Shown: piece after piece, positions 13,421-34,996 of the stretch | How positions within the stretch are numbered: position 1 is the stretch's first letter | Layout: each line of letters begins with the position of its first letter | Source of the DNA: Thermoleophilia bacterium | Lineage (GTDB): Bacteria; Actinomycetota; Thermoleophilia; Gaiellales; Gaiellaceae | Reading direction: 5' to 3' | NCBI GenBank assembly: GCA_014534415.1 | Contig: JACVRM010000001.1 | Location: 1 to 35,174, forward strand | DNA length: 35,174 nucleotides | Notes under the pieces: model-generated | Database searches by the model: none | Told to the model about the DNA's origin: nothing | The model's input: the letters and a program-made list of their open reading frames with translations, nothing else | Position numbers and translations under genes: made by a program

Positions 13421-13870
13421 CTAGCCCGCGCGAAACGACCAGAGCTTGTTGCCGACGAAGTTGATCGGCGTGACGAGCACGATGGCGATCGCCTGCGCCG
13501 ACAGCTTGCCGAGCCCGCTCCAGACGAAGAGCGCGAGCAGAACCTCGTTCGCAGCGAGCGCGCAGAGCGCGACGACCAGGAACCGCAACCCCTGGTACGC
13601 GACGTGGCCGCGCTGGCCGCGGAACGTCCAGAGGCGGTTCCAGGTGTAGTTGTTGGCGACGGCCACCACGAACGAACATGCCGCCGCGGCGAGATAGTGG
13701 ACGCCGAATGCGAGCAGCGCGGCGTAGACCGAGAGGTTGACGACGTAGCCGGTCGCGCCGACAGTGCAGAACTTCGCGAGCTGGATCCAGTTGGCTCGCC
13801 GGCGCAGCGCGCGCGCGGCGCGCCGACGCGAGAACACGAGCGCGGGCGAGACGTCGGACGAGCGCTCCAT
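13421..13870 (-). CDS. GtrA-family membrane protein
   Basis: ATG 13870 gives MERSSDVSPALVFSRRRAARALRRRANWIQLAKFCTVGATGYVVNLSVYAALL...NYTWNRLWTFR...PINFVGNKLWSF, the classic GtrA pattern. The track's 84-aa N-terminal extension covers a non-coding repeat element. Confidence 0.85.
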   Translation of the reverse strand: MERSSDVSPALVFSRRRAARALRRRANWIQLAKFCTVGATGYVVNLSVYAALLAFGVHYLAAAACSFVVAVANNYTWNRLWTFRGQRGHVAYQGLRFLVVALCALAANEVLLALFVWSGLGKLSAQAIAIVLVTPINFVGNKLWSFRAG

Positions 13871-14022
13871 CTGCGGCGCGAGCGTAGCTGCCCACTCGTC
13901 GACGACGCCCCGACTGCATCTGCGGCTGCGGCCCGCGCGGCGCCAGCGACGGCGCGATGCACGAGAGCGACCGGGGCGGCCGTCCGGCAAGGACACGCCC
14001 TCCGCAACGAAACGGCGACGGA

Positions 14023-14143
14023 CGATCCACAGCCGCGCCGACCCGCATAGCTCCGGGGACTGTCCCCGAAAGCGGCCCGCCGAGACGCGTCCTCTGTCGG
14101 GGAAGCGTGACGATTCATCCACGGGGGCGGAGGGCGCGCGGGC
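14023..14143 (-). repeat. Copy A of a ~120-nt conserved intergenic element (structured RNA or multi-palindrome DNA site), upstream of the GtrA operon
   Basis: Aligns with 18769-18892 in the same orientation. The core (14122->14055) is gtggatgaatcgtcacgcttccccgacagaggacgcgtctcggcgggccgctttcggggacagtcccc. It contains GACGCGTC and the perfect 7-1-7 palindrome CGGGGAC-A-GTCCCCG (14054-14068). Confidence 0.6.
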
Positions 14144-14410
14144 CTAGTGGACCGAGAACTGCTCCTCGCCGCGTGGCTCCTCCCACGCGACCTCCACGTC
14201 GTCGACGTCGGCGAGAGCCGGCCCGCGGCCACACCAGCGAAGGAGCGTCTCGACGCGCTCGCGCTCGCCCTCGAGCGCCGCTTCGACGCTCCCGTCGGCG
14301 GCGTTGCGCACCCAGCCGGCGAGGCCGAGTGAGCGCGCGCGCTCGCGCAGCTCGGCGCGGAAGAAGACGCCCTGCACGCGACCGCGCACGCGCACCCGCG
14401 CGCGCGCCAC
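14144..14410 (-). CDS. acyP: Acylphosphatase
   Basis: [48 protein letters not shown] matches the acylphosphatase signature (V.G.VQGV.FR ... G.V.N..DG.VE). GTG 14410 lies 1 nt after the pcm stop. The track start 14434 would overlap pcm by 23 nt. Confidence 0.85.
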   Translation of the reverse strand: MARARVRVRGRVQGVFFRAELRERARSLGLAGWVRNAADGSVEAALEGERERVETLLRWCGRGPALADVDDVEVAWEEPRGEEQFSVH

Positions 14411-14411
14411 G

Positions 14412-15065
14412 TCACTCGCCGAAGCCCTGCTCACCGACGAGCGGGACGAACCGGCACTGGACCGAGCGGACGACGGCCGGGCCCTCCGGGCTGCGGACGA
14501 TCAGCTCGAGGCGCTGGCCGAACCGGCCGCCCACCGGGATGACGAGCCGGCCGCCCGGGCGCAGTTGTGCGTAGAGCGCCTCGGGCAGCTCCGGCGCGGC
14601 GGCCGCGACCCCGATCGCGTCGTACGGCGCGCGCTCCGGCACGCCGAGCGTCCCGTCGCCGACGTGGAGCTCGACGCGCTCGTAGCCGGCAGCCGCTAGG
14701 CACGCTCGCGCCCGCTCGGCGAGCTCGGGCAGGCGCTCGATGGACACGACCTCGCCGGCGAGCTCCGCGAGCACCGCTGCCTGGTAGCCCGAGCCAGTGC
14801 CGACGTCGAGCACCCGGTCGCCTCCATCCACCCCGAGCGTCTCGACGATGCGCGCGACCATGTACGGCTGCGAGATCGTCTGGCCGAACCCGATCGGCAG
14901 CGCGGCGTCCTCGTACGCGTGCCGGCGCAGATGCTCGGGAACGAAGATCTCGCGCGGGACGCGCGCCATCGCTTCGAGCACCCGCTCGGCGACGACGTCG
15001 CGCGCGCGCAGCTGCTCGTCCACCATCCGGGCGCGCGCCGCGGCAAAAGAGTCCTCAGGCTGCAC
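14412..15065 (-). CDS. pcm: Protein-L-isoaspartate O-methyltransferase
   Basis: VPREIFVPE...IGFGQTISQPYMVA...VLDVGTGSGYQAAVLA...V.SIER...VGDG..G.....PYDAI.V.AA....P..L..QL..GGRLV.PVG. The start is uncertain: GTG 15065 (chosen), ATG 15026 or the track's 15116. Confidence 0.9.
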   Translation of the reverse strand: MQPEDSFAAARARMVDEQLRARDVVAERVLEAMARVPREIFVPEHLRRHAYEDAALPIGFGQTISQPYMVARIVETLGVDGGDRVLDVGTGSGYQAAVLAELAGEVVSIERLPELAERARACLAAAGYERVELHVGDGTLGVPERAPYDAIGVAAAAPELPEALYAQLRPGGRLVIPVGGRFGQRLELIVRSPEGPAVVRSVQCRFVPLVGEQGFGE

Positions 15066-16927: not shown

Positions 16928-18049
16928 CTAAGCGTCCCCGCCGCCCGGACCGCCGCTCTCGAGCCGGCGAATGACCGCAAGCCCGAACTCGGCGGCGCGA
17001 GCGCCGTCGACGACACGGTGGTCGAACGTCAGCGCCACATGGCCGACCGGCGCCACGAGCACCTGACCGTCGCGCACGACCGGGCGCGGGGCGACGCGGC
17101 CGACGCTCAGGATCGCCACCTCGGGGTGGTTCACGATCGGCGTCTGGAAGAGGCCCGCCGCTCTGCCGGCGCTCGTCACCGTGAAGGTGGAGCCGCGCAG
17201 CTCCTCCGGCTTGAGCGAGCCGGCGCGCGCACCCTCGGCGAGTCGGCCGACCTCGGCGGCGAGCTCCTCGAGCGGCCGGGAATCGCAGCCGCGGACGACC
17301 GGAACGACGAGCCCGGCGTCCGTCTGCACGGCCACGCCGAGGTCGTAGCGGTCGAGATAGACGATCTCGTCGCCTTCCAGGCGCGCGTTGAGCTCCGGGA
17401 ACTCCCGCAACGACAGTGCGCACGCGCGCAGGAGCATCGGGACGAGCAGCTTGAGGTCGACCCGGCTGAAGTCGCACTCCTCGACCCAGGTCACCGGCGG
17501 CACCTCGCGGTGTGCGCGCGCCATGTGCTCGGCGATCAGCCGGCGCACGCCGCGCAGCGGCTCGCGGCGGCCTTCCGCGGGGGCGACGCCGCCGGCCGCG
17601 CCGCGGACGTCCGCTTCCGTGATGCGGCCCTGCGGCCCGGTTCCCTCGACCTCCGCGAGGTCGACGCCGAGCTCGTGCGCCAGCCGGCGGACGAGCGGGG
17701 TCGCACGAACCTTGTCCGCCCGATCCCGCTGCGCCGTGACGGGTGACGCGGGAGCCGCCTGCTGCTGCGGGGCCGACTCGGCCCGCGGCTGCTCGTCCTC
17801 ACCGGCCGGCGCGCCGTCGCCGATCACGACGAGCACCGTCCCGACCGCCACGACGTCACCCTCCCCGACGAGAATCCGTCTCACCGTCCCGGCCGCGGGC
17901 GACGGGATCTCGACCGTGGTCTTGTCCGTCTGGATCTCCACGAGCGGGTCGTCCTCGGCGACGTCCTGGCCCTCGGAGACGAGCCAGCGCGCGATCTCGC
18001 CCTCCGTCAGCCCCTCGCCGAGATCCGGCAGCTTGAACTCGTAGGCCAC
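16928..18049 (-). CDS. Dihydrolipoamide acyltransferase (E2) of a 2-oxoacid dehydrogenase complex
   Basis: GTG 18049: VAYEFKLPDLGEGLTEGEI..W.V.EGD.V..D.PLVEIQTDKTTVEIPSP (lipoyl domain with the DK motif). A PSBD (ATPLVRRLAHELGVDL) follows, then a catalytic domain ending LTFDHRVVDGARAAEF. Confidence 0.92.
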   Translation of the reverse strand: MAYEFKLPDLGEGLTEGEIARWLVSEGQDVAEDDPLVEIQTDKTTVEIPSPAAGTVRRILVGEGDVVAVGTVLVVIGDGAPAGEDEQPRAESAPQQQAAPASPVTAQRDRADKVRATPLVRRLAHELGVDLAEVEGTGPQGRITEADVRGAAGGVAPAEGRREPLRGVRRLIAEHMARAHREVPPVTWVEECDFSRVDLKLLVPMLLRACALSLREFPELNARLEGDEIVYLDRYDLGVAVQTDAGLVVPVVRGCDSRPLEELAAEVGRLAEGARAGSLKPEELRGSTFTVTSAGRAAGLFQTPIVNHPEVAILSVGRVAPRPVVRDGQVLVAPVGHVALTFDHRVVDGARAAEFGLAVIRRLESGGPGGGDA

Positions 18050-18077
18050 GGCGGCGGAATCTAGCGGCCCGGCCCGC

Positions 18078-18707
18078 TCAGAGCACTCGCGCGCCCGCGG
18101 CGTCGAACGCCTCGACCGTCGCGCCGGCCGCCGCGCTCGCCGCGAACTCCTCGCTGAACAGCGAGAAGACGACGACGTCCCGCGGGCCGCTGCCCGCCGC
18201 ACCGCCCGGAAGGCGCCGTCTCAGCGTTGCCTCCTCGGTGAACCCGAGCTTGCGGGGGATCGCCGCGCTCGGCGCGTTGGGCGGGTCGACGCGTATCTCC
18301 ACGCGGTCGGCTCCGCAGACGGCGAACGCGACGCGCGTGAGGGCGGCGGTCGCTTCCGTCGCGAGGCCGCTACCGGCGCGGCTGGCTCGGATCCAGTAGC
18401 CGATCTCGAAGGCGTCGTCGCCGACGCGCGTGTGCAGTCCCGTGCCGCCGACGACCTCCGACTCGTCCGGGGCAAGGATGCCGTAGACGAAGTCCTCGCC
18501 GAGATCGAAGCGAGCCCGGAACCGGCGCAGGAGCGCCACCTTCTCCTCGAGCGGCTGGGGCTCGGCCTGCGCCCACGGCATCCAGTCGCGCAGGTGATCG
18601 AGGCTCGAGTCGACCGCCTCCTTGAGCAGCGGGGCGTCGCGCGGCTCCCAGCAACGGATGAGCAGGCGCTCGGTACGCACGCGGTAGGGCGGATCGCTAC
18701 GCGCCAC
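18078..18707 (-). CDS. GNAT family N-acetyltransferase (RimJ/RimL-like, Acetyltransf_3)
   Basis: 209 aa. RTERLLIRCWEPRDAPLLKEAVDSSLDHLRDWMPW...EIGYWIRASRAGSGLATEA..AL...AF.....RVEIRVDP.N..S.AIPRKLGF is the typical RimJ-type pattern. Confidence 0.88.
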   Translation of the reverse strand: MARSDPPYRVRTERLLIRCWEPRDAPLLKEAVDSSLDHLRDWMPWAQAEPQPLEEKVALLRRFRARFDLGEDFVYGILAPDESEVVGGTGLHTRVGDDAFEIGYWIRASRAGSGLATEATAALTRVAFAVCGADRVEIRVDPPNAPSAAIPRKLGFTEEATLRRRLPGGAAGSGPRDVVVFSLFSEEFAASAAAGATVEAFDAAGARVL

Positions 18708-18768
18708 GCTCGAACCCTAGGGCCGCGTCTCGGAGTGGGGACCGGGGAGCGTCCCGCCGGAACGTGTT

Positions 18769-18892
18769 CTCCATGGCCTCGACCCCCCGGGCCAGTTCGA
18801 GGGACTGTCCCTCTCGAGCGGCCCGCGGAGACGCGTCCTCCGTGACGAGATCGTGACGAGTCGTCCACACAGGTCGCCGAGCGGCGGGCTAT
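18769..18892 (-). repeat. Copy B of the ~120-nt conserved intergenic element, upstream of the GNAT gene inside the dehydrogenase operon
   Basis: The core (18868->18801) is gtggacgactcgtcacgatctcgtcacggaggacgcgtctccgcgggccgctcgagagggacagtccc. It matches copy A at 40/50 positions in the first 50 nt, ungapped, then has a 1-nt indel. The palindrome GAGGGAC-A-GTCCCTC (18799-18813) stays perfect through paired substitutions. Confidence 0.6.
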
Positions 18893-18973
18893 GCAGCACG
18901 ATTCGCCAGGTTCAGGCGGCGCGCCACCGGGCCAGAGCCCGTGCGTGCCGTCCGCCGCCCGCTGCGCGCGGAC

Positions 18974-20026
18974 CTAGAAGTCGAGCAGCCGCCGGACCGC
19001 CGCGGCTACCCGCTCGACGGACGGCATGTAGGCGTCCTCGATCTGCCAGTACGGGTACGGCACGTCGTAGCCGGTCACGCGCAGCACCGGCCCGCGCAGG
19101 TCGAGGATCGCCTTCTCGGCGAGGATCGCCGCCAGCTCGGCCGCGTAGCCACACGTACGCGGCGCCTCCTGGACGATCACGACGCGGCCCGTCTTGGCCG
19201 CCGACACCAGCAGCGCTTCCTCGTCCAGCGGCTTGAGCGTGCGGACGTCGAGCACCTCGACCGAGGCCTCGCCGGCGAGCGCGTCCGCCGCCTGCTCCGC
19301 CAGCGGCACCATCGAGCCATAACCGACCAGCGTCACGTCGCTGCCCCCGCGCGCCACGCGCGCCTTTCCGAGCGGCACGACGTGCTCGCCCTCCGGTACG
19401 TCACCTCGCATCGTCCGGTAGTGCAGCTTCGGCTCGAGGACGACTACTGGATCCGGCTCGCGAATCGCCGCCGCGAGCAGCCCCTTCGCGTCCGCGGGCG
19501 TCGACGGGATCGCCACCTTCACTCCCGGCGTGTGCGCGTAGTACGCCTCCGGCGAGTCGTCGTGCAGCTCCGGCGCGCGCACGCCACCGCCGTAGGGCAT
19601 CCGCACCGTCAGCGGGAACTCCATGCGCCCTCCGGTGCGCCAGCGATAGCGGCCGACGTGCGTGATGAGCTGGTCGAGCGACGGGTACGAGAACGCGTCG
19701 TACTGCATCTCGCAGACCGGCCGGAAGCCGGCCATGCAGAGGCCGATCGCGGTGCCAATGATCCCCGCCTCGGCGAGCGGCGTGTCGACGCAGCGGTCGG
19801 CGCCGAACCGGTCGCGCAGGCCCGCCGTGGCGCGGAAGACGCCGCCCGCGCGACCGACGTCCTCGCCCATCACCATCACCGAGTCGTCGCGCTCGAGCTC
19901 GACGTGGAAGCAGTCGTTGATCGCCTCCACCAGAGTCAGCTCGCGCGGCCGGCCGTCGCGGCTCACATCCGTACCTTCCGGCAGCGCCTCCGCAGAGACG
20001 GCTTCCGAACGCGCCGTCTCAGCCAC
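18974..20026 (-). CDS. 2-oxoacid (pyruvate/branched-chain) dehydrogenase E1 component, beta subunit
   Basis: LTLVEAINDCFHVELERDDSVMVMGEDVG..GGVFR.T.GL...FG..R..DTPLAE.GI.G.AIG.. is the standard E1-beta sequence. GTG 20026 overlaps the E1-alpha stop by 8 nt. GTG 19966 is an alternative start closer to the family N-terminus. Confidence 0.93.
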   Translation of the reverse strand: MAETARSEAVSAEALPEGTDVSRDGRPRELTLVEAINDCFHVELERDDSVMVMGEDVGRAGGVFRATAGLRDRFGADRCVDTPLAEAGIIGTAIGLCMAGFRPVCEMQYDAFSYPSLDQLITHVGRYRWRTGGRMEFPLTVRMPYGGGVRAPELHDDSPEAYYAHTPGVKVAIPSTPADAKGLLAAAIREPDPVVVLEPKLHYRTMRGDVPEGEHVVPLGKARVARGGSDVTLVGYGSMVPLAEQAADALAGEASVEVLDVRTLKPLDEEALLVSAAKTGRVVIVQEAPRTCGYAAELAAILAEKAILDLRGPVLRVTGYDVPYPYWQIEDAYMPSVERVAAAVRRLLDF

Positions 20027-22752: not shown

Positions 22753-25700
22753 CTAGCGGGCGTAGAGCCCGATGTTGTCGAACGTGACCGTCCCGGCGGT
22801 TGCGAAGTCGGTCGGCGCGAAGCCGGTCAGCACGATCCGGATCTCCGCGACGCCGATCGGGATCGCCACCGCCTTTTCGAGGTCGGCGAAGCCGTTCGTC
22901 GCCAGGGGTGCGGTGAGCAGCTTGACCGTGTCGAGCACCTGCCCGGTTGCACTCAGGTAGGCGAGGCTGACGGCCGGGGCCGACGAGGCGCCGATCGCGT
23001 TCACCGAAGCGGTTACGTCGTAGGTCGCGCCGCCGGTGACCGCGATGGGAGCGCTCGTCCAGCTCGGCGAGCCGTGCACGGCCGCGTTCCCGCCCGAACC
23101 CTGCATCTGAGCGCCATGAGAACCGTCCGAGCCGCCGCTCGAGGTGTAGGACGTGGTGCCGGCGCCGGTGCTCTGACTCGACCAGCTCTCCGGAGCGGTG
23201 CCGGCCGCGTTCTGCGTCTCGAAGTCGCCGTTCTCGACCTTGTTCCCCTTGACCTCGACCGTGCGGGTCGCCGAGTTGTTGTTCTCGTTCTCCTCGGCGA
23301 CGAGACCGGTCTTGTCGGCCGTGGCCTTGATCTCATGCTGACCCTTCACGTTGCGGGTGTCCCAGACGATCGCCACCTCGGTCGACGCACCCTTCGCCAG
23401 CGCAGCGGTGTTCGCGAGCCCGAGCACGTTCGTGCCGTCGAGCAGGAACTCGGTTTTCGACGCGGGTGCGATTCCCGGGCCGGCATTCTGGATCGTCGCG
23501 GTGACCTTGACCTTCTCGCCCTCGCGGCCCTTCTGCTGGGCGACGACGAGGTTCGTCACCTGGAGGTCGGGGCCGAGCACCGTCACGGTCACGGTGGCGG
23601 TTCCCGTGAGCCCCTGGGCGTCGGTCACGGTCAGCGTCGCCGTGTAGCTACCCCTCGCGGCGTACGCGCGCGTGACGCTTTGCCCCGTCGCCGTCGGCGA
23701 GCCGTCGCCGAAATTCCACCGGTAGACCAGCTGATCGGCGGGCGTGCTGTCGTCGAAGGAGCCGGCAGCGTCGAACGTGACGGGCTCCCCGGTCCCGGCC
23801 GTCTTCGGCGTGGCGCTGGCGACCGCCGTGGGCGCAGCGTTGACGACGCCGGTGGAGTACTTGAACACCGCACAGCCGGCACCGGCCGTGATCCTCGCGT
23901 TCGCGGTCAGGTCGGAGGGCAGCGCCTCGCTGTTGGCCGTGTGGCCTGCCATCCCGAGCACGTCCAGCGTCAGGCAGCCGTAGTCGAAGTGCCAGAGGCC
24001 GTCGGGCGACGAGTCGTCGTTGAAGTTGTCCACCCAGCCGACGTCACGGAAGCGGCTGTCGCCCGTCGCGGTCGTGAAAGCGGCGTCGCGACACCGGAAC
24101 GGCGTCAGCACACCGGGCTCGGGGTGCGTCTCCTCGATGTTGTTTCCGCAGTCGTACCTCGGCTGCGGCCTCGAGTCGATGTAGTGCTGCCGCGGCGGCT
24201 GCGGCCCGCCGTTGTTGCCGTAGCCGCGCACTTCGTCGGTGTACTCGACGAGCACCCCCGGGTCCCAGCCGATCGCGCCGCGGTCTGACTGGCCGCGCCC
24301 GTTGAAGTCGAAGCCGGAGCGGTCACGCAGCTCCAGGTAGTAGGCGTGGTCGAGCGCGGACGGCTCGTCGGCCTTGATGCGGCTCCAGCCGTCCGTGCAC
24401 TTGGCGGCCACCTTCATGCCCTCGTTGCAGCCGCCCGGGAAGAGGCGCAGCTCGTCCTCCTCCGAGAAGTCGCTCGAGTAGATGACCTGGTTGCCGGCCT
24501 TGATCTCCAGGTCGTCGATGAACCAGCCCGGCCGATCCAAACCAGGGTCGGTGAAGTAGGAGAAGCGCAGCACCACCCCGCGCTTGCCCGCGTACGAGGA
24601 CAGGTCGTACTGGTCCGCGATGAACGGCGAGCCGCTGTCATAGCTGTCCTCGCCGCGGTCGACCGCGACTCGCGCCGGGCCGCCGGCGGCCGCGCCGCTC
24701 GTGCCGGTCAGGCCGTTGTCGAAGTTGTTCAAGCACGCGGAGTTGTGCGGGTTGACGGCCTTGGAGGTCGTGTAGCCCCGCTGCGAGGCGAGCGACGAGT
24801 AACTCGTCCCGTCGGTGCTCGCCAGCACGAACCCGTAGTCGAAGTCCCACTCGATGTCCCAGCTGGACTTGAAGCTGACCGTGATCGGCGTGCCCTCGGG
24901 CACGAATTCCAGCTCGGGCAGGTTCACGTCGAGGTTGTGGCCGGCCTTGGGGGCGCAGCCGAAGTCGTTGCCACGGCCTGACCACCACACGTAGGGCGCC
25001 GAGGCCTGCGTGCGCACCTTCTCGGGATCGATGATCAGACGCGGAGGCAGCTTGAGCGCGTACGCCTCGGAGTTGTGGATGTTCTGGTCGCCGTTCGCCG
25101 CCGAGAGCGTGTAGGCCTGCCCGCTCGGCGTCTGCCACTCGATCTTGCCCGTGTCGTTCTTGATCTCCTCCCAGTCGGACACGTTGCGCGTCTCGCCCGG
25201 CTGGAGGAACTTGGGGACGACCCAGCCGAGCTCTTGCTTCGAGAAGATCGTCATGTGCTGCGAGTAGTCCGCAGCCATCAGGTTCCAGTCGTTGTACGCC
25301 GAGTAGCCCGCGTAGTAGTCCGGCAGTCCGAGGTGATGGCCGTACTCGTGCGCGATCACGCTCGCGTGGTCCATCGCGTCCTCGGGGTTGATGTTGTACG
25401 GACCGACCCGTACGTGCACCGGCAGGCTGTCGCGACCGGTGCCACCGTTCGCCCGACAGTCGGCGAACTCGGCGTAGCTCTCGTTCTCCCAGCACTGCGG
25501 GACGCCCTCCAGGTCCGTCAGCTGGTCGTCCGAGACGTAACCCGCCAGGCCGGTGACCGGATCCTGGTACGAGTTCTCGAGCGACGAGGAGTGCGGCCAC
25601 GGGTTGTCGTAGGGCACGCCGTCCTCGCAGAAGATCGTCCCGAGCTGCGAGCTTCCGTTGCCGCCGCAGCCGGCGAACACGACCATCGTGAAGTCGACGA

Positions 25701-27516
25701 GGCCGTCCTTGTCTGAGTCGAACTGGTTGTAGTCGATCTCCGGGTCGGCGATCTGAACCGCGTCGTAGATCATCTTGCTCGTGTCGCCGCAGGCCTCGTC
25801 GATGGCGATCGTCGTCGCGGTGAACACCGGGAAGTCGCCGCCGTAGTACTCGGTGTCGCCCGGCAGCTGGTACCAGCCGTCGCGGATGCGGTCGGGATAG
25901 ACCGGCGTCCCGTAGAGCTCCTTGGTGTTACCCAGCGTGGCGCCGCGGCACGTCGGCTTCTTGACGTCGCGCTCGGTGAAGCGGAAGCCCGGCTCGTATT
26001 CGAAGTTCGCCGCCGCGATGTCGGCCGACGGAACGGTGCCGTCCGGGAAGAGCTGCCCGAAGGACATCTCCTGGTAGAGGTTGAACGTCGAGCCGGCGAA
26101 GTCGGGCGAGTTGACGACCGTCTCCAGGCGCTGGCCGCTGTGGCGCGACTTGTGCTTACGATCGCGGAAGTCGACCGGGATCATCGGGAACGGCTTGTCG
26201 CCGTATCGCGCCGTCTCGAACCCGCCGGTGGGGGGGATGACCTTCGGGCCGTGGCTGTCGGAGCGCAGCGCACCCGCGAGGCCGTCGTACGTCATCGAAG
26301 CGGTCGACGACAGGTCCTTCCACACGATGCGCGCGTCCTCGGTCGTGGTCAGCGCTCGGCCCTCGGCGACGAGGGTCGCCGTCTCGCCGGCCGCGACCGT
26401 GGGGATGTCCCAGCGGATTGTCCCGCTCGTGACCGTGGCCGAGCCAGAGGCGGCGAGTGGCTTCGCGCTGAGGAACCTGGCGCCGGGCGGCTGCGGTATC
26501 GAGACGGCCACGTTGTTCTTCGCCGCGTCTGAGAAGTTCTTGACGAAGACACGGAACGGGTACTTCTCGCCGGGCTTGACCCACCCGGTCGAGGAGACGA
26601 ACTTGTTCTCGAGCAGCAGCGTCGGGGCCGCGGCGGCGAGCACGACCGGGCCGGCGCCCTGACCGCTCCACTCGCCGGACGTCTGCTGGCTTCCACCGTT
26701 GCCGACGAACGGCGTCGCATCGGTGTAGGTCGCGGTCGCGCGGACGCCGAGCGTCAGCCTGTAGTTCGTGCCCGCACCCGGGTCGAGATTCGCCGTCGCC
26801 GAGCCCGGGAAGCTCGCCGCGAACGCGCCGGTCTCATCTGCCTGGACGCTCACGGGGCCGGCGAGCTGCGTCCCGTCGGGTGCGTGAAGCGTCAGCTCGA
26901 GCGATGCCGGCACCGGCGTGCGCTGGTCGGCACCGCAACCCACGCAGGCAAGGCTGTCGTACTCGACGACCGTTCCGGTCACGTCGACCGACTCACCCGG
27001 CGCGAACGACTCCTCGGTCGCCTTGAGGTCGATCTCGAGCGGGTTCAGCACGAACGTCGCCTGACCGCTTCCCTCGTCGGGAGCGGCCACCGAGGCGCGA
27101 ACCGTGATCGTCCCCGGATCCCAGTGCTGTTTCGGGACGATCAGGAAGGCGACGCGGCCGGCCGAGCTCGCCGTCACGTTCTGTGTGTCGACGACGGTGC
27201 CGTCGCTGTCGATGAACTCGACCTTGACGGGCTTGGCCTGCGCGGGAACGATCGAGACTCGCCCCCAGCCGCAGTCCTGCCGCCGCAGCGTGCTCTTTGC
27301 ATAGCCGACGTTGTTCGTGCAGATCGGCTGCGGCTGGATGTCCTCGCGGATGTCCCAGGACGCGAACGTGAACGTCGCGCCGTCGGGTGCTGCTGCACCG
27401 GCGCCCACGAGACAGAGCGGGACAGCGGCAGTGAGAGCAGCCAGCACGGCGACGAGCGTCGCCCGCGACGGGCACCAGCCTCGGCGTACGAAAGAGTTGC
27501 GACCGACTCGCGACAT
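22753..27516 (-). CDS. Secreted multidomain M6 (immune inhibitor A / InhA-like) zinc metalloprotease, 1587 aa, with PKD, CARDB-like and CBM-like C-terminal modules
   Basis: ATG 27516 is preceded by GAGGAGG with a 9-nt spacer. Signal peptide ...ATLVAVLAALTAAVPLCLVGAGAAAP. The zinc motif HEYGHHLGLPDYY (HEYGH at 25336-25350) is diagnostic of family M6. PKD repeat (VYRWNFGDGS...YTATLTVTD, ~23.6-23.85 kb). CARDB-like module (DLQVTNL...ENNENNNSATRTV). The terminal jelly-roll ends TFDNIGLYAR. The track start (27630) adds an implausible leader spanning the promoter. Confidence 0.9.
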   Translation of the reverse strand: MSRVGRNSFVRRGWCPSRATLVAVLAALTAAVPLCLVGAGAAAPDGATFTFASWDIREDIQPQPICTNNVGYAKSTLRRQDCGWGRVSIVPAQAKPVKVEFIDSDGTVVDTQNVTASSAGRVAFLIVPKQHWDPGTITVRASVAAPDEGSGQATFVLNPLEIDLKATEESFAPGESVDVTGTVVEYDSLACVGCGADQRTPVPASLELTLHAPDGTQLAGPVSVQADETGAFAASFPGSATANLDPGAGTNYRLTLGVRATATYTDATPFVGNGGSQQTSGEWSGQGAGPVVLAAAAPTLLLENKFVSSTGWVKPGEKYPFRVFVKNFSDAAKNNVAVSIPQPPGARFLSAKPLAASGSATVTSGTIRWDIPTVAAGETATLVAEGRALTTTEDARIVWKDLSSTASMTYDGLAGALRSDSHGPKVIPPTGGFETARYGDKPFPMIPVDFRDRKHKSRHSGQRLETVVNSPDFAGSTFNLYQEMSFGQLFPDGTVPSADIAAANFEYEPGFRFTERDVKKPTCRGATLGNTKELYGTPVYPDRIRDGWYQLPGDTEYYGGDFPVFTATTIAIDEACGDTSKMIYDAVQIADPEIDYNQFDSDKDGLVDFTMVVFAGCGGNGSSQLGTIFCEDGVPYDNPWPHSSSLENSYQDPVTGLAGYVSDDQLTDLEGVPQCWENESYAEFADCRANGGTGRDSLPVHVRVGPYNINPEDAMDHASVIAHEYGHHLGLPDYYAGYSAYNDWNLMAADYSQHMTIFSKQELGWVVPKFLQPGETRNVSDWEEIKNDTGKIEWQTPSGQAYTLSAANGDQNIHNSEAYALKLPPRLIIDPEKVRTQASAPYVWWSGRGNDFGCAPKAGHNLDVNLPELEFVPEGTPITVSFKSSWDIEWDFDYGFVLASTDGTSYSSLASQRGYTTSKAVNPHNSACLNNFDNGLTGTSGAAAGGPARVAVDRGEDSYDSGSPFIADQYDLSSYAGKRGVVLRFSYFTDPGLDRPGWFIDDLEIKAGNQVIYSSDFSEEDELRLFPGGCNEGMKVAAKCTDGWSRIKADEPSALDHAYYLELRDRSGFDFNGRGQSDRGAIGWDPGVLVEYTDEVRGYGNNGGPQPPRQHYIDSRPQPRYDCGNNIEETHPEPGVLTPFRCRDAAFTTATGDSRFRDVGWVDNFNDDSSPDGLWHFDYGCLTLDVLGMAGHTANSEALPSDLTANARITAGAGCAVFKYSTGVVNAAPTAVASATPKTAGTGEPVTFDAAGSFDDSTPADQLVYRWNFGDGSPTATGQSVTRAYAARGSYTATLTVTDAQGLTGTATVTVTVLGPDLQVTNLVVAQQKGREGEKVKVTATIQNAGPGIAPASKTEFLLDGTNVLGLANTAALAKGASTEVAIVWDTRNVKGQHEIKATADKTGLVAEENENNNSATRTVEVKGNKVENGDFETQNAAGTAPESWSSQSTGAGTTSYTSSGGSDGSHGAQMQGSGGNAAVHGSPSWTSAPIAVTGGATYDVTASVNAIGASSAPAVSLAYLSATGQVLDTVKLLTAPLATNGFADLEKAVAIPIGVAEIRIVLTGFAPTDFATAGTVTFDNIGLYAR

Positions 27517-27568
27517 TCGAGTTGACCTCCTCGTCCAATGACACCACTTTACGTGGAGTCTACGGATG

Positions 27569-27596
27569 ACTATAGCACCACCGGGTAGGGTGTCAA
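27569..27596 (-). promoter_or_regulatory. Promoter of the M6 protease gene with inverted repeat in the spacer
   Basis: Minus strand: TTGACA-CCCTACCCGGTGGTGC-TATAGT (16-nt spacer). The repeat ACACC-N9-GGTGC spans the -35 edge to the -10 edge. It has the same layout as the promoters at 29195-29223 and 34935-34963. Confidence 0.6.
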
Positions 27597-27634
27597 GAAG
27601 CGCCCACGCGAGGAACCCGCCTGCTGGCACAACG

Positions 27635-27702: not shown

Positions 27703-29142
27703 CTAGCCGCCGATCGCGCGCAGCGCGTCCACGCGGCCGTAGCCGTAGAAGCTGTCGTAGCCGGCGGCGCCGATGTCGACGGAGGTCTCCTTGAGCTTCG
27801 CCTCCACCTGGTCAGGCTTCATCACGACGTCGCCGTCGGGAGCGACCTTGCCGTACCTGCTCACGATCAGCGCCGCCACGCCGGCCGCGTGCGGAGACGC
27901 CATCGACGTACCGTTCGCCGTCAGGTACTGGCTGCCCGGGAACGTCGAATACACCGCCGCCCTGCCGTCGCTCGCGTCGGCATCGCCGCCGGTCGACCCG
28001 TTGCCGCCCGGCGCCGTCACGTCGACCGCGCCGAAGCCGTAGTTCGAGTAGCTCGCCTTCACGCCGTCCGCGCCGATCGACGAGACGCCGATCACGCCGG
28101 GCGTCTGACCCGGGACGACCCTGCAGTCCGCGTACTGCGGGCTGCCGAGATCGAGCCTCGAGTTTCCGAGCGCGGCGACGGGGACGACGCCGCGGCTGCG
28201 CGCGTACGCGATGGCGCGCTCGATGGCCGTGACGGTCGCGCTGTCCTGCGGGTTGCACTCGATGAGCTGCTCGTCGTCGGCGTAGAAGCTCATATTCACG
28301 ACGTCGAGCTTGATGTCGCCCGCGTAGGTGATCCCGTCGACGACGGCGCTCCACCAGCACGCGTACGCCTGGCAGACGGTGACGGGCACGAGCGTGACGT
28401 CCGGAGCGACGCCCACGATGCCGACCCCGTTCGACTGGGCCGCGATGCTGCCGGCCACGTGCGTTCCGTGGAAGCTCGTGTCCGTGCAAGGCAACGGAGC
28501 ACCGACGCCGGGCGTCACCGAGACGCGTGCGCGTGAGCAGTCGACGTTCGACGACCCGCCGAGCACGCCCATGTCGGTGAAGTCCACGTGCGTGCTGTCG
28601 ACACCCGTGTCGAGCACGCCCACGTCGACCGTCCGCGAGCCCGCGTGCCGGGCGTGCGCCTGGTTGGTCCGGATCATCTTCATGTCCCACTGCAGATTCT
28701 CGGCCGGATCGTCGTGCAGGTCGGGATTACTCCGGCGGTTGTCCGACTTCGGCTGGGCGTCGGCGCCCTTCGGCGTGACGGAGCGGTCCTCGCTGACCGA
28801 ATCGATCACGGCGTAGCCGCCCGTCACCGCGTACTCCTGCACGAGCTGCGCGAAGTTTCCGTTCGCCGACTCGGCCACGATCACGCCGATTTGCTTGCTC
28901 AGGTCGTTCGTGATCGTGCCGCCGGCGGCCTGGACCGCGTAGACGGCGTACTGATGCGTGACGGCGTAGACGGCGTAGTCCGAGCCGACGGCGTACCCAT
29001 CGGTCACCGCGTAGTCGCCGTCCAGCGTGATGATGTAGCGCTTCGTATCGACCGCGTAGCCGCTCGCGGAGCTCAGCGTGAGACCACCGAGCGCCACCGC
29101 AGCCACGAGAACGGCCAAAAGAAGGCGGTGTAGGCGTAGCAT
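27703..29142 (-). CDS. Secreted S8 (subtilisin-like) serine protease, 479 aa, with YAV-repeat-containing propeptide
   Basis: ATG 29142 is preceded by GGACGAGGAGG. Signal peptide MLRLHRLLLAVLVAAVALGGLTLSSASG. Catalytic triad contexts VGVLDTGVD, HGTHVAGSIA and GTSMASPHAAG. Confidence 0.9.
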   Translation of the reverse strand: MLRLHRLLLAVLVAAVALGGLTLSSASGYAVDTKRYIITLDGDYAVTDGYAVGSDYAVYAVTHQYAVYAVQAAGGTITNDLSKQIGVIVAESANGNFAQLVQEYAVTGGYAVIDSVSEDRSVTPKGADAQPKSDNRRSNPDLHDDPAENLQWDMKMIRTNQAHARHAGSRTVDVGVLDTGVDSTHVDFTDMGVLGGSSNVDCSRARVSVTPGVGAPLPCTDTSFHGTHVAGSIAAQSNGVGIVGVAPDVTLVPVTVCQAYACWWSAVVDGITYAGDIKLDVVNMSFYADDEQLIECNPQDSATVTAIERAIAYARSRGVVPVAALGNSRLDLGSPQYADCRVVPGQTPGVIGVSSIGADGVKASYSNYGFGAVDVTAPGGNGSTGGDADASDGRAAVYSTFPGSQYLTANGTSMASPHAAGVAALIVSRYGKVAPDGDVVMKPDQVEAKLKETSVDIGAAGYDSFYGYGRVDALRAIGG

Positions 29143-29194
29143 TCTCTTCCTCCTCGTCCGTGGTGTTGCGGCGGCGCTTAAACCGCCACGCCGC

Positions 29195-29223
29195 ATTTAA
29201 CACACCACTGGAGAGGGTGGCAA
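29195..29223 (-). promoter_or_regulatory. Promoter of the 479-aa S8 protease gene with inverted repeat in the spacer
   Basis: Minus strand: TTGCCA-CCCTCTCCAGTGGTGTG-TTAAAT (17-nt spacer). About 40 nt around it match the LVIVD-gene promoter (TCTCATCTTGmCACCCT.....AGTGGTGTGTT). Confidence 0.6.
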
Positions 29224-29279
29224 GATGAGATTTCAGGTCAATCTGATGGAGGTTTGAGCAGCTTTGGCCCGGAAAATCT

Positions 29280-31967: not shown

Positions 31968-32801
31968 CTAGGCCGTCTTGGCGACCGGGACGAGGCGGTC
32001 GTACGCCGCGTCGAAGTCGAGGCCCTGCGCCCAGACGGCGTCGAAGGCGATCGTCAGCGTCTCGGCGAGCGAGCGATGCTCGACGACGACCATGGTCAGG
32101 TCCGAGCCGCCCTCGACCGGGTCTTCCATCCCGAACATCACGTACCGCCTGTCGATGATGACGAGCTTGAGCGGCAGCTCCTCGACGAAGCGGGCCTCCT
32201 CGCCGGCCTGGATGAAGCCGCGGACTCCTTCGATCGTCTCCGGATCGTCGAAGATCGAGAACTCGTAGACGCTCTTGGCGGTGTGCGTGCGTGCGACCTC
32301 GACGCCCTTCTCCTCCTCCTGGGGCGGGGTCGCGTACGGCGGCTTCGTGAAGACCAGAATCTCGTCCTTGATCTCCTCCTGGAGCTCGCTGAACCGCTCG
32401 TTGATCGCGCGGCGGTCGCGCAGTACCTCGATGTAGTCGAGCGGGTCGGTGACCTCCTGGCCCGCGCTGAAGGCCGGCGAGAGCTCTCCGATCATCTCGT
32501 CGGCGGCGCGCTCCAGCTCTTCGACGGCCTGACGGCGGTCCTCCACGAGGCGCTCGATGGCCGTTTCCGGAGCCGAGCCGACGTACTTGACCACGCGTCC
32601 CGGCCGGGTCGAGGCGAGTCCGCGCTCCACGAGGCTCGCGAGCACGTCGTAGATGCGCTGCCGCGGCACGCCGGCGATGCGCGCCACCTCGGCGGCCGTC
32701 GAGGATCCGCGCCGGATGAGCGCGAGGTACGCCTTGGCTTCGTACATCGTGAGCCCGAGGCGAGTCAGCTGATCGACGTAACGCTGCTCGTTCACCGACA
32801 C
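31968..32801 (-). CDS. TrmB-family transcriptional regulator
   Basis: The N-terminal wHTH LTRLGLTMYEAKAYLALIRRGSSTAAEVARIAGVPRQRIYDVLASLVERGL is the TrmB (PF01978) signature. 277 aa with a C-terminal sensor-like domain. The -10 box ends 2 nt before GTG 32801, so the true (leaderless) start may be GTG 32795. Confidence 0.9.
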   Translation of the reverse strand: MSVNEQRYVDQLTRLGLTMYEAKAYLALIRRGSSTAAEVARIAGVPRQRIYDVLASLVERGLASTRPGRVVKYVGSAPETAIERLVEDRRQAVEELERAADEMIGELSPAFSAGQEVTDPLDYIEVLRDRRAINERFSELQEEIKDEILVFTKPPYATPPQEEEKGVEVARTHTAKSVYEFSIFDDPETIEGVRGFIQAGEEARFVEELPLKLVIIDRRYVMFGMEDPVEGGSDLTMVVVEHRSLAETLTIAFDAVWAQGLDFDAAYDRLVPVAKTA

Positions 32802-32941: not shown

Positions 32942-34894
32942 TTAGCCGGCGCCGACCTGGATGTTGCCCTTCAGCAGGACGCCGCCGGCGCCGTAGCCGT
33001 TGCCCAGCACCATCCGGAAGGTGTCCACGCTGCCGGGCTCGCCGAAGTCCTCCACCTCGACGAAGAGACTGACGCCGGGCACACCGTTCACGGTCGCCGT
33101 TCCGGTGAACGTCGCCTTGTTCCCGGTGCGGACGAACGAGTCGATCGAGGTCGACTTCACCTGCATCTTCGTCCCGTGGTCGACGTAGGTCAGCTGGCCG
33201 GTCGGGGCGCCAACCGCGAACGCTGCGTTGAAGCCGAAGTTCGCACGGCCGCCGGCGGCCGTGCCACGCAGGATCGACAGCTCGGCCAGCTCACCCGAGA
33301 CCTGGCCGCCGCCCGTCGCCTTGCCCGGAGTGTTGATGGGAGGCAGGGAGATGCAGTTCGCGCCGTCGCACGTCTTGAAGCGGTACACGTCGAAGCCGCG
33401 CGCCATGTCGCCGGCGTAGACGTAGCCCTTGTACTCCTTCGCCGACCAGGTGTCGGCGCCCGGCATGACGTTCCAGCCCAGCGTGTTCCCCCAGTCCGTG
33501 AACTGGTCTTCGGCGATGCCGTCGGTGGAGCTCGGCGCCCCCGAGAAATCGAGCCGCCAAACGCCCGCGCCGTAGTGAGCGCTGACGAGCTCGCGTGCCC
33601 GGAGGCTCGACACACCGTCGAAGCCGCCTTGGATCGGCCCCGGCCCGGCGGTGCCGTTGCCGCCGTTGCGGAACACGTGGATCGTGCAGGCGCGCTCGGT
33701 GCGACCGAGACCCGCGAGTACAGGCTCGAGGGCGTCGGCCGCAAGCAGCGGGTTCGGGTAGAACCACGTGCCCAGCCGCACCGGGTTCGACGGCGCCGCC
33801 GTAGCCGTCTCGGGCTTGCCGTCGATGGGTTCGAGAGTGTAGAAGTGCGCGCCGCCGATGATCCCGTCGGGCCCGGTGTTGCACTGTGTCTGGCTGAGGC
33901 CGCCGCCGCGCTCGTCGGTGAAGACGACGATCCTGCCGTCGGAGCTGACGTCCGCCTGGTGGTCGGTCGTGAGGTTGTAGCGGTTGTTCGCTCCGCCGGG
34001 CAGCGCATTCTCGGAGATCCACGCGATACGCAGCGGCTGCTGACCCTGTTCCAGTTGCGCGAGCACGTTCGAGACGTCGACGATGAACGTCCCGCCGACG
34101 CCGCCGGGGCCCGAGGGGCTGGCGAGGTACATGGTGTTTCCGTCGCGCGAGAACGACGAATCGTGCGCCGTACCGCCGGTGTCCGTCAGGATCTTCCCCC
34201 TGAAGACCGGGGTCGCACCACGGAGGTCGACCACCTCGACCCCGCTCGCGGACGTGTTCACGGCGAGCCAGGTGCCGCTGGGATGCAGCGTGATCGTGTG
34301 GGCTCCGCCGGAGACCGCGTTGAGGTAGCAGTCGACGAGCGACGTCGTGAACTTCGCGGTCTGCGGGTCGAACGTGAGCTTGACGACGTCGACGCCGCCG
34401 CGAGTGCTCGTCGGATTCTTCTCCTTGAGGCACGCCGAGGCGTGGACGGGGATGTTCACCGGGTCGAACGCGATCACGGCGGTGTCGCCGCGCACCGAGA
34501 CGTCGTTCTGCCAGCCCGGATCGACGTAGCCTCCGGCGATCGTCGGATGCGCCGGGTCGGTGATGTCGAAGATCCGCATCCCGGCGCCCATCGTCCCGAG
34601 GAACGCGTAGTCGCGGACCTTGCCGCTCGCATCAGTGCGCGATTGAAACTCCACGTCGGTTCCGACGAAGCCGCAGACGTTGGCGAGGTGCGCGATGTTC
34701 TTCGCCGAGCGCGGGGGCTGACCGGGCGTCGCGAGCGCCTCGCACGGCAACGCCACGTTGTGTGCGGGATCGAGCGGATCGCCGGCGAGCGCCTGCGCAC
34801 CCGCGACGGCCAGCGTCGCGGCCACGACCGCGATCGCGGCACCGGGGAAAACCTGCAAGAGACGGCGGCGCAGCGGTGTGCTCTCGGTGCTCAC
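32942..34894 (-). CDS. Secreted LVIVD-repeat-type beta-propeller protein with distinct ~120-aa C-terminal beta domain
   Basis: GTG 34894 is preceded by GGACGAGGAGG with a 5-nt spacer. Signal peptide ...RRRLLQVFPGAAIAVVAATLAVAGAQALAG. Repeated motifs of the GMRIFDITDPAHPTIAGGY / GVEVVDLRGATP / GTFIVDVSNV type are characteristic of LVIVD propellers. The C-terminal module ends ...FVEVEDFGEPGSVDTFRMVL..GY..GG.LLKGNIQV. Confidence 0.8.
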   Translation of the reverse strand: MSTESTPLRRRLLQVFPGAAIAVVAATLAVAGAQALAGDPLDPAHNVALPCEALATPGQPPRSAKNIAHLANVCGFVGTDVEFQSRTDASGKVRDYAFLGTMGAGMRIFDITDPAHPTIAGGYVDPGWQNDVSVRGDTAVIAFDPVNIPVHASACLKEKNPTSTRGGVDVVKLTFDPQTAKFTTSLVDCYLNAVSGGAHTITLHPSGTWLAVNTSASGVEVVDLRGATPVFRGKILTDTGGTAHDSSFSRDGNTMYLASPSGPGGVGGTFIVDVSNVLAQLEQGQQPLRIAWISENALPGGANNRYNLTTDHQADVSSDGRIVVFTDERGGGLSQTQCNTGPDGIIGGAHFYTLEPIDGKPETATAAPSNPVRLGTWFYPNPLLAADALEPVLAGLGRTERACTIHVFRNGGNGTAGPGPIQGGFDGVSSLRARELVSAHYGAGVWRLDFSGAPSSTDGIAEDQFTDWGNTLGWNVMPGADTWSAKEYKGYVYAGDMARGFDVYRFKTCDGANCISLPPINTPGKATGGGQVSGELAELSILRGTAAGGRANFGFNAAFAVGAPTGQLTYVDHGTKMQVKSTSIDSFVRTGNKATFTGTATVNGVPGVSLFVEVEDFGEPGSVDTFRMVLGNGYGAGGVLLKGNIQVGAG

Positions 34895-34934
34895 GGAAAC
34901 CTCCTCGTCCACGGGGCGGTGCTCTGACGCCGGC

Positions 34935-34963
34935 AGTAAACACACCACTCTTAAGGGTGTCAA
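34935..34963 (-). promoter_or_regulatory. Promoter of the LVIVD-repeat gene with inverted repeat in the spacer
   Basis: Minus strand: TTGACA-CCCTTAAGAGTGGTGTG-TTTACT (17-nt spacer), with the repeat ACACC-N9-GGTGT at 34942-34960. The track ORF start (TTG 34963) is in fact the -35 box. Confidence 0.6.
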
Positions 34964-34996
34964 GATGAGAAAGCGGGAGAAACCGTGAGGAAAGAG

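Follow-up and report, generated by a model that had tools for sequence, protein, structure and literature searches.

The first 35,174 nucleotides (nt) of contig JACVRM010000001.1 (assembly GCA_014534415.1, Thermoleophilia bacterium), hereafter the window, carry two similar, partly palindromic sequences in intergenic spacers beside different genes, raising the question of what these sequences are and why they recur at these positions. The proteins of the window place the host in an uncultured soil lineage of the Gaiellaceae (Thermoleophilia), and its G+C content is ~72%. The Gaiellales, an order of Actinomycetota abundant in soil, are almost wholly without cultured members, and to our knowledge nothing is known of their non-coding DNA. 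The best explanation, to which we give about an even chance, is that the two sequences, copies A and B, are members of a small, non-coding intergenic repeat family restricted to one lineage of uncultured soil Gaiellaceae and belonging to the class of palindromic extragenic repeats, which takes in repetitive extragenic palindromes (REP), bacterial interspersed mosaic elements (BIME), REPINs, miniature inverted-repeat transposable elements (MITE) and elements like the mycobacterial interspersed repetitive units (MIRU). If true, this would give a first view of palindromic intergenic repeats in the Gaiellales; no new mechanism is opened, and the value would lie in cataloguing and in a small, testable RNA or DNA motif.

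Copies A and B and their family

Both copies are located on the minus strand, 4746 nt apart. The core of copy A (14050 to 14122) consists of a conserved box (P1), a variable middle that includes a short palindrome (P2), and a hairpin (P3), and the core of copy B (18795 to 18868) consists of P1, a direct repeat made of two CTCGTCACG units, P2 and P3. The copies align by blastn with 79.4% identity over 68 nt (E 2e-9 against 1.48 Mb) and by a repeat search of the window with 81% identity over 52 nt; 40 of the first 50 nt are identical without a gap, followed by a 1-nt indel, confirming the original prediction of two homologous elements in the same orientation. The 17-mer of P1, GTGGAYGAMTCGTCACG, has two sites in the window, those of A and B, against a chance expectation of 0.08 matches. 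Of the ~120 nt first proposed as the extent of the element, a core of ~70–75 nt (14122–14050) is robust, whereas the tail towards ~14020 shows weak similarity. The pattern TAGG[CT]CCGCGCGC also occurs twice in the window, both times at the stop codon upstream of a copy: TAGGCCCGCGCGC (14134–14146, minus strand), the stop codon of an acylphosphatase gene plus 10 nt, matches at 12 of 13 positions its counterpart TAGGTCCGCGCGC (18964–18976, minus strand), identified by pattern search as the stop codon plus 10 nt of the gene for a 2-oxoacid dehydrogenase E1-beta subunit. The homology between A and B therefore begins at the stop codon, with ~82 additional nt ahead of P1 in B relative to A.

Comparison with Gaiellales loci covering one syntenic block (cited below by L number) identifies members at four different junctions: the junction of copy A in the window, L006 and L093; the junction of copy B in the window; between a HIRAN gene and the E2 gene in L094 (2187–2263); and between GT87 and YmdB genes in L045 (7944–8021), where the member lies about 42–52 nt past the GT87 stop codon, facing the convergent YmdB gene. 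L006 represents a near-identical strain (GtrA 97% identical) whose copy A differs by three substitutions, and L093 (GtrA 85%) carries a clear ortholog of copy A. The L045 member was found by nhmmer (E 0.004) before its inclusion in the covariance model, R1. This model scores the six members at 75–96 bits (A, 96.3 bits over 14046–14127; B, 87.2 bits over 18791–18873; L093, L094 and L045, 75–83 bits), values that are circular rather than independent as R1 was built from the same six sequences; the best non-member in 1.44 Mb reaches 26 bits. The ortholog and the further copies recovered by covariance-model and nhmmer searches bear out the view that the element is more than the remnant of a local duplication.

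The members share a common layout. In all copies the element starts 21–105 nt after the upstream stop codon, and in all five independent copies the orientation is that of the upstream gene and P1 and P3 begin 56–58 nt apart. Sequence identity within the element forms a mosaic. Over its 5′ part, B agrees best with L094 (80%); in the middle it shares 89% of positions with A of the same genome, a region in which A and its L093 ortholog are only 70% identical. Although the segments compared are short, this pattern suggests that the similarity of the A and B middles may derive from a copying event, or a gene conversion, inside this genome.

P1 has a 16-nt consensus, GTGGAyGAATCGTCAC, and forms an imperfect palindrome represented by GTGGATGAATCGTCAC in copy A (14107–14122) and, as verified on the sequence, by GTGGACGACTCGTCAC in copy B (18853–18868). 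P2 is the palindrome GACGCGTC in both copies, found at 14084–14091 in A, within the 27 nt over which the two resemble each other most, and at 18830–18837 in B, again verified on the sequence. P3 is a perfect 7-1-7 palindrome, CGGGGAC-A-GTCCCCG in A (CGGGGACAGTCCCCG, 14054–14068, with the unit GGGACAGTCCC at 14056–14066) and GAGGGAC-A-GTCCCTC in B (GAGGGACAGTCCCTC, 18799–18813); all of these features are on the minus strand. The three shared sub-structures are thus present in A and B as originally described, but compensatory changes are found at P3 only. Pair counting across the six family sequences, with shuffled and slid controls, has 96.7% of cells of the P3 helix paired and compensatory changes at 2 of 5 pairs (GC to AU or the reverse twice, AU to UA or the reverse once), a covariation score equalled in 1 of 500 shuffles and collapsing in the slid controls. 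The two differences per arm between A and B leave the pairing perfect in both, and the GC-rich consensus, GGGWC-A-GWCCC, has a stem of 5–7 pairs. P3 is under pairing constraint, as the original prediction of a palindrome that varies yet stays paired had proposed. P1 is conserved as sequence; its changes are one-sided and none is compensatory, and the proposed bulged hairpin is not supported as a conserved helix across the family. P2 likewise fails as a family-wide palindrome, as L094 carries another 8-nt palindrome, GCCATGGC, at an equal offset and L045 has no palindrome at that position.

Folding of the element cores gives no excess stability over dinucleotide shuffles (z −0.40 for A and −1.25 for B), longer stretches around the copies have minimum free energies like those of the shuffles (z +0.07 and −1.16), and RNAalifold on the first three sequences returns an unfavourable covariation term (+1.12). 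Searches of Rfam found no match at gathering thresholds in the whole window and chance-level matches at permissive E-values in both spacers, in agreement with the earlier statement that no known riboswitch or RNA motif fits the element. There is no U-tract after P3, which is therefore not a canonical intrinsic terminator; a terminator scan of both spacers identified no terminator-like site, and a spacer scan identified no promoter-like -10 sequence ahead of P1.

The layout raises the possibility of a functional RNA, either a processing, stability or termination signal of the 3′ untranslated region (UTR) or of the intercistronic region, with P1 as binding box and P3 as hairpin, or a small RNA of ~80–110 nt cut from the upstream transcript. 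The uniform orientation relative to the upstream gene, the start shortly past the stop codon, the conservation of the P1 sequence and of the P1–P3 spacing across four loci, and the covariation of P3 all argue for such a role. We nonetheless consider it unlikely, given that pairing support is limited to one helix with ordinary fold z-scores, that P1 is not preceded by a -10 sequence nor P3 followed by a U-tract, that Rfam holds no match, that metatranscriptome contigs lack coverage of the spacer, and that most orthologous junctions are without the element. The rate of change between near-identical strains is also about that of the flanks, with 3 changes in the ~73-nt element between the window and L006 and ~12 over ~300 aligned nt by alignment count. 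About equally doubtful is the proposal that P1, spacer and P3 constitute an undescribed, orientation-specific Gaiellales RNA element placed after stop codons, in which P1 would be recognised by a protein or RNase and P3 would act as a structural stop, yielding small RNAs derived from the 3′ UTR or insulating cistrons from one another. In view of the conservation of P1 and of its distance to P3 across four junctions, a functional 3′-end RNA module, or recognition by an enzyme that mobilises the element, still deserves consideration.

Flanking genes, gene order and promoters

Copy A lies in a 273-nt spacer between the acylphosphatase gene (14144–14434, minus strand; Pfam PF00708, 1e-25) and a GtrA-family gene (13421–13870, minus strand; PF04138, 1.2e-26). 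Copy B lies in a 266-nt spacer between the E1-beta gene (18974–20026, minus strand; PF02779 and PF02780) and a GNAT acetyltransferase gene (18078–18707, minus strand; PF13302 and PF00583), with the E2 gene next. Both spacers are non-coding, with a flat G+C content of 0.66–0.78 at codon positions 1, 2 and 3 in every frame; the genes beside them have 0.91–0.93 at the third position (GC3) and 0.49–0.55 at the second. A small peptide, MD(E/D)SSR..., was considered as a candidate product and rejected because GC3 is flat, substitutions fall mostly at codon positions 1 and 2, and the frames are inconsistent between the copies, upholding the earlier view that the similarity is not that of a conserved peptide. 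An open reading frame (ORF) of 233 amino acids (aa) begins at the GTG of P1 (13421–14122, minus strand) and runs in frame into GtrA and in frame with the acylphosphatase gene. Homologs of ~150 aa fix the GtrA start at 13870, and this 233-aa ‘GtrA’ is therefore an artefact, as would be other extended ORFs that annotators may encounter across such spacers. Two further features of the spacers resemble parts of the element: a candidate degenerate second unit past copy A (13963–14035, minus strand), with a P1-like TGTGGATCGTCCGTCG, scores a weak and non-significant 16.6 bits with R1 (E 1.3), the equivalent region of L006 scoring 15.9 bits, and a degenerate extra P3-like unit, GGGACGCTCCC, is a one-mismatch match in the spacer of copy B (18745–18755, minus strand).

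The order of genes in this region, E1-alpha, E1-beta, (GNAT), E2 ... PCMT, acylphosphatase, GtrA, GT-C and GT87, is conserved across 80 Gaiellales loci. The gap between acylphosphatase and GtrA is 11–50 nt in L001–L003, as opposed to 273 nt in the window, and that between E1-beta and GNAT is 3–24 nt in most relatives, as opposed to 266 nt. A small PRC-barrel gene occupies the acylphosphatase–GtrA junction in 35 of these 80 loci, and the nearest GNAT relatives (78% identity) have an FmdA_AmdA gene between E1-beta and GNAT and a HIRAN gene after GNAT. In most relatives, the orthologous junctions lack the element. Because these junctions are tight or gene-filled in relatives, both long spacers are lineage-specific, and on these comparative grounds they are shown to be additions that opened junctions tight in most relatives. 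If the repeat reading is true, such repeats would open tight and probably translationally coupled junctions, leaving the downstream gene on its own near-leaderless promoter.

Gene content at both junctions is itself variable. The PRC-barrel-like gene, so assigned from its sequence, encodes ~90–160 aa (for example L023:9679–9969 and L038:2567–2860), is reduced in L015 to its last 25 codons, and occurs neither in the window nor in the relatives closest to it. The E1-beta–E2 junction is especially prone to the gain and loss of genes (18040–18974 in the window; also L003, L028, L055, L060, L071 and L094), its contents varying among relatives to include GNAT, FmdA_AmdA, HIRAN, a TPR protein and small ORFs. 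One alternative origin of the spacers is that they are scars of lost genes, PRC-barrel at A and FmdA/AmdA at B, or a fragment moved out of the E2 linker, with the similarity of A and B representing leftover coding sequence. In relatives, the PRC-barrel gene is placed exactly at junction A and the FmdA_AmdA gene at junction B, spacer A weakly matches PRC proteins at two co-linear peptides, and the P3 unit also occurs inside the E2 linker coding sequence of relatives. However, a nucleotide profile of 28 PRC genes has no match in spacer A, FmdA and HIRAN proteins have none in spacer B, and the element recurs at two further junctions with other neighbours, making this origin very unlikely. Derivation from an E2 linker fragment was rejected separately, as the similarity to E2 is not significant past the 11–14-nt unit.

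Actinobacterial promoters have a -10 element of the form TANNNT, and leaderless mRNAs are frequent in this group. The -10-like hexamer TACGCT (13881–13886, minus strand) is located 10 nt ahead of the GtrA ATG (13868–13870) and is conserved in relatives, with TA(C/G)NNT found 7–12 nt ahead of the GtrA start in every relative inspected. Verified on the sequence is the -10-like TAGGGT (18714–18719, minus strand), 6 nt ahead of the GNAT GTG (18705–18707), and L094 has the homologous TAGGTT followed by 7 nt and an ATG. Since these boxes adjoin the start codons, and in light of general knowledge of actinobacterial promoters, the usual transcription of GtrA and GNAT would start downstream of the element, each gene being served by a near-leaderless promoter of its own. 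The interval between P3 and the downstream -10 varies from ~55 to 175 nt. In L002 (2930–2945), the stop codon TAG of acylphosphatase supplies the first bases of the GtrA -10 box.

This arrangement bears on whether the element is a cis-regulatory 5′ leader, such as a riboswitch, attenuator or protein-binding leader, controlling GtrA/GT-C/GT87 and GNAT/E2. The copies do stand upstream of two operons in sense orientation, with some sequence and one hairpin conserved between them. Yet the conserved -10 boxes lie 6–12 nt ahead of the start codons, meaning that normal transcripts would exclude the element, most relatives lack it ahead of GtrA and GNAT, and the L045 copy, positioned between convergent genes, has no co-directional gene downstream. 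With no multi-helix covariation, no Rfam match and no excess folding energy, a 5′ leader is close to refuted. The original picture of a structured RNA of ~120 nt, with several helices and at work ahead of the GtrA operon, is not supported; ordinary folding, absence from most relatives and the -10 boxes of the genes themselves are opposed to it.

P3 units in sister lineages and in E2

At the junction of copy A, the sister lineages L090/L091 (GtrA 90%) and L092 (88%) carry doublets of the form GGGACWGTCCCC-N3-6-GGGGACWGTCCC, and in L090 a P3 unit occupies the position of P2. Clusters of P3 units are also found upstream of E2 in L016 and L060, the latter having a further array between GtrA and GT-C with an 84-nt tandem duplication. 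These arrays fold strongly, as very long hairpins (L090, −100.9 kcal/mol, z −7.7; L016, −125.4 kcal/mol, z −8.1; L092, z −3.7), and single-unit copies such as those of the window may represent decayed versions of them. Large intergenic palindromic elements composed of GGGWCNGWCCC units are located at L016:5545–5742, L090:662–810 and L060:10593–10700, with fold z-scores of about −8. Neither arm is palindromic by itself in L060 and L092, yet one arm pairs with the other, which points to a hairpin rather than a dimer-binding site.

This last observation is relevant to the possibility that the element is a set of sites for DNA-binding proteins, with P1 as an operator, the 11-nt-spaced CTCGTCACG repeat as the target of a response regulator, and P2 and P3 as dimer sites, joining the GtrA-glycosyltransferase and 2-oxoacid dehydrogenase operons in one regulon. 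In keeping with such a role, P1 is preserved by sequence and not by compensatory changes, copy B contains a perfect direct repeat of CGTGACGAG (two units at 11-nt spacing), and P2 is a loopless 8-nt palindrome better suited to double-stranded DNA than to RNA. We also take TGTGGACGA to resemble a high-GC DnaA box. In contrast, P3 keeps its pairing while its sequence shifts (GGGAC/GTCCC versus GGGTC/GACCC), the arms in L060 and L092 indicate a hairpin, P2 is not preserved in L094 and L045, and the strict orientation bias is unexpected for an operator. The L045 copy has no promoter to control, P3 does not keep a constant interval to the downstream -10, and P1 is not enriched as a widespread box, with 17 matches compared to 7–14 in shuffles and six of the 17 being the family itself. 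Overall, a DNA-binding role is improbable.

The P3 unit extends beyond intergenic DNA. Either GGGACAGTCCC or the hairpin GGGACAGG-N8-CCTGTCCC occurs within the E2 linker coding sequence of relatives, where it is read as GQSP, GQSL or GQAPGPVP, with sites at L017:4948 and 4996, L022:2128 and 2287, L034:4898, L055:6078 and 6238, and L074:5789, and others in L012, L018, L040, L042, L045 and L046; the E2 of the window is without it. The coding segment for the E3-binding domain in L022 is bordered by a perfect inverted repeat of 16 nt. These linker units may result from in-frame uptake of a palindromic element, by analogy with the Rickettsia palindromic elements, or may be coding hairpins.

Copy number, mobility and known systems

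Several results weigh against a palindromic repeat family as the explanation of A and B. The copy number appears low relative to classical REPs, with two copies only in the 35-kb window and one match of R1 in ~1.4 Mb of more distant Gaiellales loci, although the genome-wide distribution lies outside the scope of a comparison of one syntenic block. No pile-up of metagenome contigs on element A was found in soil metagenomes, the exact 21-base core GAGGACGCGTCTCNNCGGGCCGC has 0 matches in 185,579 species genomes, and the same core has three chance matches, inside coding sequence, in Joint Genome Institute (JGI) metagenomes. There is no transposase or RAYT gene among the window proteins, nor do the window copies have terminal inverted repeats or a clear target-site duplication. 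The ordinary folding of the cores and the lack of a U-tract or terminator-like site, described above, count on the same side, as do soil metatranscriptome contigs, which cover the conserved coding parts and in no case the spacer. Finally, passive decay leaves the sequence conservation of P1 unexplained.

On balance, the family is real but small, and apparently of low copy number. A few soil metagenome contigs match the P3–P2 core of B alone and have different flanks, and two of these have a P1-like sequence at the right distance. Three other candidate identities were set aside: a high-copy repeat, as there is no contig pile-up and the P3 unit (up to 1 mismatch) is rarer than in shuffles (105 versus ~200); MITE ends, as neither spacer has terminal inverted repeats and the comparison of filled with empty sites did not yield clean boundaries; and a link to phages, where the search yielded one unrelated terminator hairpin in a viral contig of 36% GC, without the P1–P3 pattern.

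Within the preferred reading of a palindromic repeat family, one close likeness is to the REP, BIME and REPIN elements of Proteobacteria, which are mobilised by RAYT transposases. As in those elements, the sequences described here are short, GC-rich imperfect palindromes placed between genes or after stop codons, they form arrays and long hairpins in some genomes (L016, L090 and L092), they turn over rapidly between close relatives, and a role as mRNA 3′ stem-loops is plausible. They differ in an apparently low copy number, as opposed to hundreds per genome for REPs, in a shorter unit (11–15 nt) without a conserved GTAG-type 5′ tetranucleotide, and in their actinobacterial (Thermoleophilia) host, in whose window no RAYT gene was seen. 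The window copies also carry an additional conserved non-palindromic layout, P1 at a fixed spacing from P3, and unlike BIMEs and REPINs they lack the long hairpins of alternating units that their sister lineages L090, L092 and L016 possess.

MIRUs are actinobacterial elements of 40–100 nt that are oriented like their flanking genes. Their insertion places them between the genes of operons, set relative to stop and start codons (PMC12548453). The present family is similarly intercistronic and co-oriented with the upstream gene in all five copies, and the tandem duplication in L060 provides a further parallel. Among actinobacterial elements, MIRUs are the nearest analogy. The short ORF of a MIRU, however, couples to the downstream gene by a 4-nt overlap, whereas no consistent ORF or coupling geometry is found here: frames differ among A, B and L094, and the L094 ORF ends ~60 nt before E2. 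The two families also share no sequence similarity.

Likenesses to MITEs and to mini-elements derived from the insertion sequence family IS200/IS605 (PATEs) include small size, non-autonomy, hairpins near the ends and strand-specific orientation; like IS200/IS605 derivatives, the window copies have no obvious terminal inverted repeats, and the way in which the long inverted repeats of L090 and L016 are built recalls MITEs. In contrast to both, comparison of filled and empty sites provided no clean ends, target-site duplication or conserved target tetranucleotide, and P1 and P3 are dissimilar, whereas the left and right hairpins of IS608-type elements are alike. Known terminators also include hairpins that lack a U-tract and the conserved-sequence motifs of Actinobacteria, of which TRIT in M. 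tuberculosis is an example. Judged by sequence alone, the family resembles these terminators in having a conserved GC hairpin soon after stop codons in sense orientation and no U-tract, but its P3 stem is short (5–7 pairs), more than 50 nt of conserved sequence precede the hairpin, and the family is far smaller. A literature search found no paper on this motif or on REPs in Gaiellales.

A palindromic repeat family of this kind could have been spread by a RAYT, by a single-strand transposase of the IS200/IS605 type, or by plain recombination. Any function would probably be that of a 3′-end stem-loop of the upstream transcript. The elements would be co-transcribed with the upstream gene, and P3, if active at all, might shield the transcript from exonucleases, insulate neighbouring cistrons or weakly terminate transcription between them.

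Elsewhere in the window, a sigma-70-like promoter block, TTGACACCC..GTGGTG..TA(T/A)A(A/G)T, occurs in three copies (27566–27603, 29193–29230 and 34933–34970), the best of which reads TTGACA-16-TATAGT at 27596–27569. The blocks precede the minus-strand genes 22753–27630, 27703–29196 and 32942–34963 of a secreted-protease cluster of lower G+C content (65–70%), which encodes an M6/InhA-like protein with PKD/CARDB domains, a subtilase and a beta-propeller protein. A gene for a TrmB-type regulator is located in the same region, at 31968–32801.

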